In this document: positions 1 to 59,700 of the stretch, piece by piece
Layout of the letters: each line of letters starts with the position of its first letter
Position numbering within the stretch: position 1 is the stretch's first letter
Assembly (NCBI GenBank): GCA_965202585.1
Contig: OZ241827.1
Coordinates: forward strand, 26,784,001-26,848,000
Reading direction: 5' to 3'
Source of the DNA: Thalia democratica
Lineage: Eukaryota
Length of the DNA: 64,000 nt
The notes under the pieces: generated by a model
What the model was told of the DNA's origin: nothing
Databases searched by the model: none
What the model saw: the letters and a program-made list of their open reading frames with translations, nothing else
Translations under genes and position numbers: made by a program

Positions 1-1
1 C

Positions 2-598
2 CACTGCAATGATTTTGGGATAATGAGTGTTTGTGGAGAAAAACAAGCTCAAAAACTAACAGATATGTTACAAAATGGAATAGGTTACAATAGTTTATAT
101 AATACATTGTTTTGTGTTTCAGATGATAAACAGTGCCAGCAATACATAAATACTTGTTATTTTAAAAATTTATATGAGAAAGTAGTAGAAAAAGTAATGA
201 AAAGCAAACAGGGCCCTTCTAAAAATGTTTTTATTCAAAGTTTGAATTGTCAATTAATTTTAAAAGCTCAACCCAACCACAATTCTGATCATGAGACTGC
301 TGAGTGGATAACTCTGTACGACAAAACACATATGGAATATGCTTTTAGAAAAATGATGTTTTTTTCTGACAGAGAAAGAGGTCAAACACCTTGGAATAAG
401 ATATTTATTTGCCCAAAGTTTTTAGTGGGTTATGTAGTAAAAAGATTAATGCAAGTTAATGTTAACATTAGTCATGTTGGAAATTTTGACGTTGGAGATG
501 CCTCTGTAACTGAAATTCGTGTGTCTTCTAATAACAAGCCTTTTGTAAACTTAATTGGAGCTAGAGCCTATTTGAATTATGATGGCATGCATAATTAG
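2..598 (+). CDS. PGAM5-like: PGAM5-like histidine-phosphatase-fold protein, catalytically degenerate (5' end outside window)
   Basis: The frame is open from the window edge (HCNDFGI precedes the ATG at 23). CGEKQAQKLT resembles PGAM5 LGREQAELT, HMEYAFRKM resembles RIEAAFRNY, and KIFICPKFLVGYVVKRLMQ resembles EIFICHANVIRYIVCRALQ. The C-terminal ~60 aa are roughly half identical by eye to the neighbouring ORF. No intron in the visible part. Confidence 0.75.
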   Translation, partial: HCNDFGIMSVCGEKQAQKLTDMLQNGIGYNSLYNTLFCVSDDKQCQQYINTCYFKNLYEKVVEKVMKSKQGPSKNVFIQSLNCQLILKAQPNHNSDHETAEWITLYDKTHMEYAFRKMMFFSDRERGQTPWNKIFICPKFLVGYVVKRLMQVNVNISHVGNFDVGDASVTEIRVSSNNKPFVNLIGARAYLNYDGMHN

Positions 599-1122
599 CC
601 TTAGTTTTATAAAGCAATTTTTAGTTGTTTAAAAGTGTAAAAAGTTGCTAAAGGTAATGATTAAAGCTATATTTTATGGTTTCATATATACAACAAAAGC
701 TAAATTGATATTCAATAGTTTGAATTTATTAAGTTTTGTTTAAAAAACTTTTTATCAAACTAAACAATGACCTGGGTAAAAAATATGACTTTTTTTTATA
801 GCTTAGTCACAGTTAGCTAAAAATTTTTGTTCTTTACTAAATAAAGTTTTTTTTTGTTTCTGATTTATGATAATGAAGTTTAATTAAACATCTTTATTAT
901 CAAAATAGATGAAAAAGTATTATTTTTTGAAATAGTTAAACTACATATTTTGAGTATTATACATAATTTTTAGCTTATTAGTTTCTTTAAGAATATATTA
1001 CATGTAGAGTATTAATATAACACTAATTTCAGACAGTTTTTCTTAAACAAAATAAGTTTTTAAAGTTTTGCAGTATAGTGTTCATTTGTAGTGAGTAGTT
1101 TGGACAGTTAATAGGTTCAATT

Positions 1123-2037
1123 ATGTTTAGAGCAGCACTAGTAAGTGGGCTACTTGCTAACAGTAAAAAGTTTTTAAAGCCAGCTCATTGTTCAGATGGA
1201 ACAGGTGATGCACCTCCAGCTCAATTATTTGAGTTAGTTAGAGATAACTACGAAGTTGTTGGTAGTCTGTTTCAACGCAATAAAAGTCAATGGGATGAAA
1301 ACTGGAACTTATCTAAGATGGAGCATGGATACTGTCGTTATTACTTTATTACTCCACCTGAAACAGATCCATACAGTAGTTTTACATACCGTGGTAAACA
1401 ACAAACTACTAAGTTGCTTAACTATATAATTGATAATATTATTGACAATCATATTGAATCTCACAATTTTAAGTTTTCCATATCTGACGACCATAAATGT
1501 CAAAAATTTAAAAACACTGATTTGTTTAAAAAGTTTTATGAAAGGTTGACAAATTTCTTGATTGGAATTAAACAACCAGGGCCACATGGGCATACAGGGG
1601 CACCTCATCTTTTTCAAGGAGCCATGAGACGCTTACCACCTAGAATGTTTAGACAAAATTTGGAGAACATGTTCACACCTAACTTAATGCCAGTTTCTAC
1701 AGTTAAACCTGGGACTGTTGTAGAAGACCAAGATTATGGTCTGGATAAAATGGAGTTTGGCTTCGGAGAAGTATTTTACTTAGATAATCAACGTGAAAAA
1801 GAAGGAGATAAGAACCATTGGTGTGAGATTTATATTTGTCCTAAAAACTTTGTCAAATTTGTTGTAACAAGATTGATGCAGATGAACATAGACCATAACT
1901 ATGGAAGATTTGATATTGGTGATGCCACTGTTACTGAAGTTCGAGTGAATAAAAGTAATGATGTTTTTCTTCAGAGTGTAGGAGAGAAAACTTTTCTTGC
2001 ACCATATCAGGAGGAAAGTCCAAGTTATAGACAATAA
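1123..2037 (+). CDS. PGAM5-like: PGAM5-like pseudophosphatase, 304 aa, intronless, probable mitochondrial presequence
   Basis: WDENWN matches the PGAM5 WDxNWD motif. CRYYFITPP aligns to TRHIFLIRHS, GKQQTTKL to GREQAELT, LFQGA to LREGA, EIYICPKNFVKFVVTRLMQM to EIFICHANVIRYIVCRALQF, and VFLQSVGEKTFLAP to VALRTLGDTGFMPP. The N-terminal 24 aa are basic with no acidic residues. Alignments are from memory of human PGAM5. Confidence 0.8.
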   Translation: MFRAALVSGLLANSKKFLKPAHCSDGTGDAPPAQLFELVRDNYEVVGSLFQRNKSQWDENWNLSKMEHGYCRYYFITPPETDPYSSFTYRGKQQTTKLLNYIIDNIIDNHIESHNFKFSISDDHKCQKFKNTDLFKKFYERLTNFLIGIKQPGPHGHTGAPHLFQGAMRRLPPRMFRQNLENMFTPNLMPVSTVKPGTVVEDQDYGLDKMEFGFGEVFYLDNQREKEGDKNHWCEIYICPKNFVKFVVTRLMQMNIDHNYGRFDIGDATVTEVRVNKSNDVFLQSVGEKTFLAPYQEESPSYRQ

Positions 2038-56782: not shown

Positions 56783-59700
56783 TCAAACAGAAGAAGATCT
56801 GTTTCTGCTCCCCATCTTTTTCATCTTTTTCCTGACGATGAAGCTTCCGCTCGACACCCGCTTCTCCGCAATCAGCTCCTCCACCGCCAGTTTCTCCTTG
56901 ATAATTTCGTTCGCTTCCGTCTGAGACTGCAGCTTCAGCTTCCTGAACTTCCTCGACAAGTTCTTCCTCCTCAGGAACCAGTGCTCCTTCACGTGCCTGC
57001 CGAACCTGTCAAAAAACAAGCCTACTGACAATTGACAAGACCTATAACAATTAATTTTTTGCTTACTTATAATATTTAAATATGTGGTGAAAAGAGATTT
57101 AACAAAGGAATCAATTAAAATCGAAGACCCTTATATTGAAAACGTTTATCACAAGTTAAGCAGTATTTTTCAATTATGACAAACCTTTTCAGACGTATCT
57201 TCAGCGCCTCCTCCATGGTGTCCGGGGCGAACGGGCCTTCCTTGTAGTGAACGTCGTGGTAGGCGGCGGAAAGCCACTCAAGCATGAGCACTATCGTGCC
57301 GACGAGCATGCCGGCCGCCATCAAGTAGAAAATTCCCGCCAAATCGCTGACCGTTAGCTGGCGCACGTGATCCGCGTCGGCGTCGCAGAGGTTCTGCCAC
57401 GTGATCTCGTACTTGTGGCTCAGAGCTCGCACGTATCCCCGCTGCACCAGCTTGTCAAAGTAGGAAGAGAACTCTTGCAGGTGGGGAAAGTTTTTACTGA
57501 CGGCAAAAGCGTACTCCATTCCGGGAAAATTCGAGCTGGACACCGACCTGAGCTTGCACCCGCTCTGCCTCTCCGAGTGCTCCAAAGACACAGAGTCCCA
57601 AAAGAAGGCAAACTTTTCAGTCATGGATTTTTCAATGCCTTCGTCCAGGGAGCGCAGCACGACGTCCTCTTTTTCAACGTCGTAACCGAGATCGACTTCT
57701 CGCATCAGGGCGGACACCGAGGAATCGGCCACCGTGCCATAATCGTAATCCGTCCTGGACATAAGGTCGGCCACGCTGTCCATCCAAGTAGTCTTGGGGC
57801 GGTCGTGCCGCGACAACGCGGACACCATGTTGGCGGTGTAGTGGGCCACCAGTACCACCGAGCACAGGTACCAGGCCACCGTCAGCACCCGCTGGGACAT
57901 GGACCTGGGCACGGTGTCGGGCGACTGCCAGAAGAGCGCGGCCCAGGTGAAGTAGAGCGCGTTGCTCATGCACATGCCCCTTTCCGCTTCTTGCCTGGCC
58001 GACGCCAGCCTCTTCTTGTTCCAGTTGGAGGTCTTATGGAAGAAGTGGCCCCTGTTACCGTACGGACTGATTTTGGATAGGAAGTTCAAGAGGCTGGCCA
58101 CTAAAACGACTGATATCACGATTGCGAGGTACAGGTCGAGTGTGAAGGGGCTCATGAAGGCAAAAGGGTTGTACTCGAAGTCGGGCTGGTTCTCTCTGCG
58201 GTAGACAAACTTTATTTCGATGTTCATGAAAGCTGGTAAGAAACTGACTGCCGTTTTGCGCTGGGCGGTCACCGTCAACGGAGCGACGATCAAATCAACC
58301 TCGTCCCTCACGAGGCTGCCGACCATTCCGCTCCACGCGTTGGTCTCCTCGTCAAAATCTCCGAAAAATCCGTCACCAACCAGGGTCACGTTGTAATCGA
58401 AATCGCCGATTGCGGCAAACGCTTGCAAAAGCTCGATGCAGAAGCCGTTAAACTCGGAATTGTTCGCATCGTATGTGACAAAAGGCGCTTCTACAATTGT
58501 CACGACCCGCAAAAACATTTTCCCATCTTTAAACTCTTGGCTGCTGTGTCCTAAATTCAAAGAGGTGACGTCAAAAACAATTGGTTTCTCGGCGTTTTGG
58601 AGAAGCTGCACAAACTTGTAGTGGTGGTTTACAAACCAAGAAATACGGATCGGAGTGATTCTGTTACCAGTTGCGTCGAATTGAATTTTTTCAAGGCCGT
58701 ATATTGTTTGGTTTATCAAAGACTTCTTTACAAGGTCTATATCAATCTGTTACCGAAAACTTTAATCATAACAAACTTGTACATAACTTATAAAAAGCAA
58801 ATCTTACCTTAGCTTTTGATGTTTTAAAATTATTCAAACTAATTGCAGCAAGAACTATAGCGTCGGTAAAGGCAAATATTTTATCCATGTTGGCAAACTT
58901 GTAAGCTGGCAAAAACCGGCTCGATTCACTAACCAAAGATTTAGCTTCAGTTTCCTTGCTCACATACTCCGTAGTAAGAACGCCTGAAGTTACAGTTTTA
59001 TAAATAACTAAAACACTGTTTTCATATTCTCTAAACTAAATATCAATAATTGTTAATAATTACTCTAAACCAGGGTTTCCCAAAGTGGTCCATTTAGTCC
59101 TTTGGGGCGATAAGCTGGAAAGGGAGTAATGGGGGCGCACTAGTAAAAGGGCCATATAAAAAATTAGATACATTAGATACAAAGGGCCATATAAAAATTT
59201 TAAAATTACACTAGATAAACTGTGGTGTTTAATGAGCGGAGGCAATCATTTATTAACTTCTGAAAAGGGGCATTTTTGAATTCGAGTTTTGGAAACCCTG
59301 CTCTAAATTTCTCAAACGTACTAACAGTGTACAGTTTGTAAAAATTATTTAAACTATTTTTAATTAGCTTATTTATAAATATTTTTTCTTTATATTGCAG
59401 TTTTTTTTAAACCGAAAAGTTTTATCTATTATCTAATCATTAAAATTACGTAATCAAAGTTTTATAATTCAAGTTTTATGAGAGCTTAACTAAAACAGGC
59501 ACCAACTAAAACTTAAAATACAAATTAGAATATTATCTTATGCTTATTTTGTTTAAACTATACATTAAAATTAATAGAAAATCTAATACTTTTTAAAATA
59601 TTTTTTTAATTAGTTGATAGAAAATTCTATATAAATCAATTTTTAGTGTTAAAAATTTCAAAACTTTAAGTATCTTTTTTTAGTAGTTTTATTATACAGT

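Follow-up and report, generated by a model that had tools for sequence, protein, structure and literature searches.

Two neighboring genes, here called ORF-A and ORF-B, encode proteins that appear to combine the fold of the phosphatase PGAM5 with a lost active site. In the leading reading, still tentative at a probability of roughly 0.45, both are dead PGAM5-fold structural subunits of mitochondria, most likely those of sperm, in a pelagic tunicate. The genes lie on the same (plus) strand at the left end of the window, i.e., the whole stretch of DNA analyzed (64,000 nucleotides, C2:26784001-26848000), which is part of the 802-Mb genome of Thalia democratica. The features are as follows.

1..598, plus strand: ORF-A, open at its 5' end at the window edge; last two thirds of a single-exon gene (302 aa) for a putative PGAM5-like pseudophosphatase
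413..415, plus strand: Pro242 of ORF-A, replacing catalytic His230 of human PGAM5
599..1122, plus strand: spacer of 524 bp between ORF-A and ORF-B; ORF-A 3' UTR RNA extends to at least 901, ORF-B RNA starts from about 1050
1123..2037, plus strand: ORF-B, 304-aa single-exon gene for a putative PGAM5-fold pseudophosphatase
1123..1194, plus strand: N-terminal 24 residues of ORF-B, basic, with no acidic residue and a short hydrophobic stretch; probably mitochondrial-targeting-like
1291..1308, plus strand: WDENWN, ORF-B residues 57-62, degenerate WDxxWD multimerization motif with the last Asp replaced by Asn
1348..1359, plus strand: ITPP of ORF-B (I76-T77-P78-P79), replacing catalytic IRHG
1495..1497, plus strand: Lys125 of ORF-B, replacing phosphate-binding Arg152
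1564..1677, plus strand: variable insertion of about 35 residues in ORF-B (residues about 148-185), around the active-site capping loop; modeled with low confidence
1840..1842, plus strand: Pro240 of ORF-B, replacing catalytic His230
1870..1884, plus strand: RLMQM, ORF-B residues 250-254, counterpart of human RALQF; Met254 corresponds to Phe244 of the F dimer interface

The preliminary description of this DNA named two adjacent same-strand open reading frames and estimated about 50% identity between their C-terminal ends. Both statements hold: the frames lie at 2-598 (5' open) and 1123-2037, 29 of the 60 C-terminal residues are identical, and the identity over 244 aa is 31%. When the left flank is included, ORF-A is complete (302 aa, C2:26783690-26784598), with its ATG located 311 bp left of the window; the 5' part outside the window carries WDKSWN and ITPP. 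A leftward continuation of the array had also been proposed, but a family profile search found no third member in the window and 39 kb upstream, and a search with ORF-A found nothing in the genome closer to it than ORF-B. ORF-A and ORF-B are a pair rather than an array. Genome-wide, about 60 PGAM5-like genes are found, mostly single-exon and in tandem clusters.

Descent from PGAM5, as first proposed, is supported by several lines of evidence. A Pfam scan of ORF-A and ORF-B matched no family. ORF-B alone matched human PGAM5 when searched against the PDB (E 0.0035), and a profile of seven subfamily sequences matched human PGAM5 with E 5e-11 and no other matches under 0.1. A profile comparison with a single Ciona sequence gave a weak match (probability 34, E 4e-4), and the best ESM Atlas matches (0.81-0.84), in His_Phos_1 clusters, are a lead only. 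The AlphaFold model of ORF-B, built on a 122-sequence alignment, has a pLDDT of 71.9 and a pTM of 0.72. With this model Foldseek matched PGAM5 (E 3.5e-11), and VIA-align superposed it on PGAM5 with Z 17.2 and an rmsd of 3.2 over 195 residues, the next family reaching Z 12.9; the structural alignment to 5muf begins at model residue 55 and chain residue 56. An earlier, weaker model already had PGAM5 at the top among 48,161 representatives (Z 14.4); evidence from this model and from the sequence searches is more independent, because the alignment behind the better model includes PGAM5-like sequences. On the modeled structure, ORF-B is a protein of the histidine phosphatase branch 1 fold, nearest to PGAM5, and ORF-A is PGAM5-like as judged by its sequence. 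ORF-A and ORF-B resemble PGAM5 (PDB 5muf, 6cnl, 3mxo) in this predicted fold, in a basic, targeting-like N-terminus, in a Trp motif ahead of the domain and in an F244-type dimer face. They differ from PGAM5 in the loss of all catalytic residues, in WDxxWN as the form of the motif, in unconserved alpha-3 ring contacts, in the insertion of about 35 residues, in the lack of a Pfam match and in the presence of about 60 paralogs instead of one gene.

In the alignment to Ciona PGAM5, the catalytic RHG is TPP in both ORFs and the second His (H230) is Pro in both (P240 in ORF-B, Pro242 in ORF-A), as had been read from the letters (RH to TP and the second His to P in ORF-B, ICP in ORF-A). The second catalytic Arg (R152) is K125 in ORF-B and Q in ORF-A, a loss that was absent from the preliminary description. 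In the column of the catalytic Glu, which we take to be numbered E177, no alignment gives Glu in ORF-B, and two of them put N187 or the QPG stretch near 151-153 there. The loss of the REGA Glu was therefore recognized correctly, but the residue then named as its substitute, Q165, lies in the variable insertion; six of nine full-length near-identical cluster members have H at this position, and the 55% relatives lack an equivalent residue. All nine A/B-subfamily sequences, down to 30% identity, share ITPP and CPK without change. In human PGAM5 the phosphate is coordinated by H105, R152 and H230 (PMC6355839, cited here and below from partial text). From these substitutions we infer that ORF-A and ORF-B are phosphatase-dead.

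The assembly surfaces are kept in part. WDENWN of ORF-B, described before, and WDKSWN of ORF-A retain W, D and W, but the final D is N in both, and ORF-B lacks basic residues at the positions of R64/R65, so the motif is not fully kept. The inactivating A4 mutant of PGAM5 is changed at W58, D59, W62 and D63; F244 centers the core dimer, R65 and Y198 form the ring contact, and activity relies on both the F dimer and ring assembly (PMC6355839). At the ring-contact positions of ORF-A and ORF-B, D63 is replaced by N, and R64/R65 and Y198 are without a clear counterpart in the alignment; the alpha-3 interface (R64/R65, Y198, E199) is unconserved by alignment. As the ring-forming contacts are not kept, rings or filaments are unsupported for these two proteins. 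The core dimer face is a different matter, with Met254 of ORF-B aligned to human F244. A two-copy prediction for ORF-B residues 40-300 scored 0.32 (0.00 for the best of three controls), with a contact agreement of at least 84% and a pLDDT of at least 54. The predicted interface comprises residues 251-255, 262-266 and 280-291 and includes an M254-M254 contact. The score lies exactly on the mark, a level attained by 21 of 30 homodimers of solved structure and by 0 of 23 monomers (17 of 29 and 0 of 30, respectively, for eukaryotes). With a score no higher than the mark and a human dimer already solved, the prediction shows likeness rather than binding, and the pass may stem from the predictor's memory of a solved like complex. 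Dimerization of ORF-B through an F244-type face is, at this level, predicted.

The first 25 residues of ORF-B carry a charge of +4/-1, and their hydrophobicity is low (0.95, compared to 1.39 for Ciona intestinalis). At most one acidic residue was found at the N-terminus in all 36 non-redundant family genes, but in only 41 of 252 internal windows, and the mean net charge of these 36 N-termini is +3. The acid-poor composition thus fits the presequence-like N-terminus of the preliminary description, and mitochondrial import of ORF-A and ORF-B is predicted. The absence of the ESGE motif, noted at the same time, is real but uninformative, as the PGAM5 proteins of Ciona and Phallusia are also without ESGE.

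The family, first supposed to be lineage-specific, is far larger than the window showed. Genome searches, with flanks, yielded 45 PGAM5-like genes that consist of a single ORF and were read from end to end. Additional members are six PGAM5-like loci with introns, two broken pieces and nine genes seen only as matches, in three of the seven units of an 18-kb repeat on C5; the resulting family size of about 60 genes is a lower bound. The C5 tandem unit contains three genes in 18 kb and is repeated seven times. Most genes of the family stand in same-strand clusters of two to five, with spacers mostly of 340-1200 bp. Broken copies are located at C5:38125108 and C1:40618033, and an apparent frameshift at C1:93703. 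Only six of the 45 fully read genes jointly keep RH, R, E and H; the remaining 39 are scored as dead. Among the non-redundant dead genes (n=30), the Trp motif is present in 22 in its loose form (12 in the strict form) and the dimer motif in 23, while H105 is found in three and H230 in nine.

The most canonical-like, catalytically intact PGAM5 gene, C2:44514219, has Phallusia and Ciona PGAM5 as its nearest named relatives. It is itself a single ORF, hence the intronless state may be inherited; together with the differing intron places among the six intron-bearing relatives, this leaves the retroposition suggested earlier not established. Three Ciona-type queries, with the best candidates scored, found no slow-evolving canonical PGAM5, which in very short exons could escape such a search; the best full-length genome match to these queries was 44-45%. 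In the trees, which have long branches, omit the near-identical array repeats and give nothing firm on family monophyly or the order of events, ORF-A and ORF-B fall together (aLRT 99), with the C5/C1 'PK' genes as their sister or a close neighbor (99), and the group of the intact C2:44514219 joins a Phallusia protein, apart from the Ciona canonical PGAM5 (98). The PK dipeptide is common to the A/B subfamily and the C5 array. When 28 sequences of dead or divergent members were combined into a profile, it retrieved three proteins and no named tunicate ortholog among the candidates scored. Pfam misses all three dead copies that were scanned in full (ORF-A, ORF-B and one C5 copy), so that standard annotation would overlook the expansion.

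Both genes are transcribed. The ORF-B stretch is present in seven RNA runs from three marine-sample studies (14 runs listed). Contigs were compared from eight runs, six of them RNA runs from bulk marine samples; X8, X9 and X13 (small shares) as well as X6, X11 and X14 were left out of this comparison. RNA contigs cover ORF-A in X1, X2 and X4, and contigs in X3, X4, X5 and X7 cover ORF-B, in both cases with no splice joints; unspliced ORF-B contigs of 929 nt and 1108 nt were obtained from the oligo-dT run X5 and from X4, respectively. Runs X1 and X2 contain 81-86% of the ORF-B words; that none of their contigs falls on ORF-B has no meaning, given a filter which discards records. The RNA runs leave the middle of the spacer and the stretch upstream of ORF-A bare, and much of both is covered by run X10 (library type off record). 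About 150 nt are uncovered between the two RNAs, and no contig among the runs compared bridges ORF-A and ORF-B.

A contig from X1 (78 nt, depth 6.4, 5 other letters) has extra 5' letters at an AG located 16 nt before the ATG of ORF-A. These letters plus that AG equal the major spliced leader of Ciona (PMC1488885, Table 1, seen in part), and the leader plus GT has 358 exact copies in the genome, compared to 0 for the control. No match was found to the copepod leader given in the available part of PMC4664967. A copepod source of the DNA is thereby rejected, and the Ciona-type leader, together with the relatives of the intact paralog, marks the source as a tunicate. The leader was seen on the upstream gene, ORF-A, only. 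Ciona operons are without intercistronic DNA (PMC1488885, partial text).

Differences listed between contigs and genome, which cover all but 7 and 10 rows and mix populations or species, number 12 synonymous and 12 non-synonymous in ORF-B (pN/pS 0.24, p 0.0008) and 8 synonymous and 21 non-synonymous in ORF-A (pN/pS 0.61, p 0.17). ORF-B is under purifying selection, and ORF-A shows weak constraint. Relatives of ORF-B at 85%, 56% and 54% identity retain full frames, and so do the relatives of ORF-A. Synonymous sites between ORF-A and ORF-B are close to saturation (pS 0.73), and close paralog pairs elsewhere in the family mostly show dN/dS of 0.4-0.7. DNA for relatives, sought in metagenomes for dN/dS and synteny, gave 209 and 47 pattern matches, of which 0 were confirmed. 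The earlier view that these genes are still maintained is in line with RNA for both ORFs and with the selection on ORF-B.

Among full-length PGAM5-like matches, 29 of 117 are without RH[GSA]; about 11 of these 29 are closely similar to genes of this genome, and two are incomplete or near-intact. Proteins with a substituted RHG, as here, are found in the mirid bugs Apolygus lucorum and Lygus hesperus and in the annelid Owenia fusiformis, where they are annotated merely as PGAM5 or as uncharacterized. Dead PGAM5 copies therefore arose elsewhere too, and what stands out here is the scale of the expansion. In the accessible parts of the literature outside subscription journals (PGAM5 pseudophosphatases, Ciona PGAM5, testis Pgam5-2, tunicates) the family is unreported. 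Neither PGAM nor phosphoglycerate occurs in the available main text on the Salpa thompsoni genome, and the available parts of PMC12994792, PMC4664967 and PMC5526904 contain nothing on this family.

A structural role fits the pattern in which assembly surfaces were kept while the chemistry was lost in many independent ways. The role also fits the reported ability of phosphatase-dead human PGAM5 H105A to assemble into rings and to cluster mitochondria, an effect that depends on F244 (PMC6355839). H105A is thus dead yet oligomerizing, like the picture proposed for ORF-A and ORF-B, where a dimer is predicted for ORF-B; it differs in retaining the full ring interfaces and the other active-site residues, whereas ORF-A and ORF-B are natural and far more eroded. 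A second parallel are the eight testis-specific S-Laps of Drosophila, two of which were shown to be inactive, and which build the paracrystal of the sperm mitochondrion (PMC6388916, partial text). In S-Lap1-8, too, a family of mitochondrial enzymes that oligomerize has expanded; its members have lost catalytic residues to different degrees and carry targeting signals at the N-terminus (PMC6388916). The S-Laps have an unrelated fold and comprise eight genes as opposed to about 60, and testis expression and a structural role were shown for them, while here both are drawn by analogy. Duplicated mitochondrial genes that have no introns and evolve fast are often biased toward the testis. Tubule-like structures in the salp sperm mitochondrion are background that carries no weight in this reading. 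In salp sperm the mitochondrion is wound round a spiral nucleus (PMC4285288, partial text, citing Holland 1988).

In the leading reading, ORF-A and ORF-B would be imported into mitochondria via the basic N-terminus and would dimerize by the F244-type face, both steps being predicted, and by analogy they may then shape or fill mitochondrial membranes as structural subunits. The site of action, by analogy to the S-Laps and to salp sperm, may be the sperm mitochondrion. A more far-reaching version is possible, if doubtful: the approximately 60 mostly dead paralogs might co-assemble into an ordered scaffold within the sperm mitochondrion that winds about the spiral nucleus. This would be a chordate counterpart of the S-Lap paracrystal, built on the activity-independent membrane shaping of PGAM5, with the slow-evolving PGAM5 lost.

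Dead subunits might instead hetero-oligomerize with the few active PGAM5 paralogs and tune their activity or substrate choice, which would agree with PGAM5 needing both its F dimer and its rings for activity (PMC6355839) and with the several tandem clusters in which intact genes stand beside dead ones (e.g., C5:20286596-20291540 and C8:48709203-48712491). This is unlikely for ORF-A and ORF-B, which have no active neighbor and are only about 20% identical to the catalytically intact genes; moreover, dead genes outnumber intact ones by 39 to 6, and no slow-evolving canonical gene was found with the Ciona-type queries. The modulators of canonical PGAM5 envisaged in the preliminary description are weakened on the same grounds.

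An improbable alternative places the proteins outside the germline, where they would have diversified under conflict as adaptors or scaffolds for immunity, cell death, mitophagy or the response to mitochondrial stress. PGAM5 acts in such pathways (PMC6355839), and fast divergence, tandem amplification and dN/dS of 0.4-0.7 fit conflict-driven families, but the genes have no Keap1-type motif and nothing tested ties them to stress. Substrate trapping is also unlikely, since the basic residues of the phosphate pocket are lost and Pro occupies both His positions. The gain of a new catalytic or ligand-binding activity by the PGAM5 fold through other residues (ITPP, SDD, C126, CPK) has a low probability: within the A/B subfamily the replacement residues do not vary and PK is shared with the C5 array, but neither site has a nucleophilic His or an equivalent, and the substitutions differ by subfamily, which fits relaxed rather than new shared chemistry. 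Least probable is that the two are decaying duplicates without current function, which the non-significant departure of the ORF-A pN/pS from 1 and the broken copies elsewhere would allow, but against which stand frames that stayed open at 31% identity between ORF-A and ORF-B, with a pS of 0.73 between the two, and at 54-85% identity between ORF-B and its relatives, the trans-spliced RNA of ORF-A and the pN/pS of ORF-B.

PGAM5 has been studied as a single-gene phosphatase, in which catalytic and structural roles are hard to part. Dozens of paralogs with all grades of active-site loss, in which the Trp motif and the dimer face are mostly kept, are a natural test of which surfaces serve structure only. 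If they are expressed in the testis, these proteins would be candidates for parts of the unusual mitochondrion of salp sperm. Sperm mitochondria would then have been built from dead oligomeric enzymes in two independent cases.

The nearest kin of ORF-A and ORF-B, the catalytically dead PGAM5-like pair of the window, are the PGAM5-like genes of an array on contig C5 of the host assembly, G000. The genes of the repeated unit are themselves dead and have acidic tails. The sevenfold repeat is adjoined by four further PGAM5-like copies, two of them on the opposite strand.

C5:68865906-68984261, 7× repeat of an 18-kb unit, three dead PGAM5-like genes per unit

Two single-ORF genes of other families were also noted, the first about 6.4 kb to the left of ORF-A.

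L004:1398-2297, (-) strand, DAO-family oxidoreductase, FAD-dependent (PF01266, E 9e-29)
window 57115-58749, (-) strand, ionotropic glutamate receptor-like gene, 544 aa (Lig_chan-Glu_bd, Lig_chan)

Other paralogues carry inserted repeats or introns.

L061:2551-3426 (C5:20289551), paralogue with a Cys-Pro repeat insertion
L065:3393-4430 (C8:65047390), dead paralogue interrupted by a long repeat
L085:4251-5319 (C1:93702251-93703319), intron-bearing paralogue
C1491 (L088-L093), 18-kb contig with a second version of the intron-bearing gene at C5:18487608

The Cys-Pro repeat, which sits ahead of the Trp motif (WDxxWD-type), is of a kind that may be reminiscent of sperm-tail proteins. The C8 insertion lies within the domain and is built of 5-residue units of Lys, Asp, Ser and Gly. 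The C1 paralogue has RHG and CHAN intact and an apparent one-base frameshift within a C run, either an assembly error or the mark of a pseudogene. The version on contig C1491 is 80-96% identical to the C5:18487608 gene, and the contig is probably an unplaced haplotype.

The Ciona-type spliced leader followed by GT occurs in 358 exact copies in a whole-genome search, many of them single and scattered, on every large contig listed. An Rfam search of two stretches with dispersed copies (L026, L027) gave no match. A leader exon with its GT donor also lies inside an rRNA repeat.

C26 (L108/L109), rRNA/snRNA/spliced-leader repeat unit, 15,085 bp, with 18S, 5.8S and 28S rRNA, U2, U5 and two 5S genes

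Coding GC among the PGAM5-like paralogues ranges from 0.28 to 0.61, a spread seen even inside one cluster, in an AT-rich genome. In the tree, the Phallusia protein P0177 clusters with the intact paralogues of G000, separate from canonical Ciona PGAM5, and this grouping hints at a duplication that predates the host lineage.
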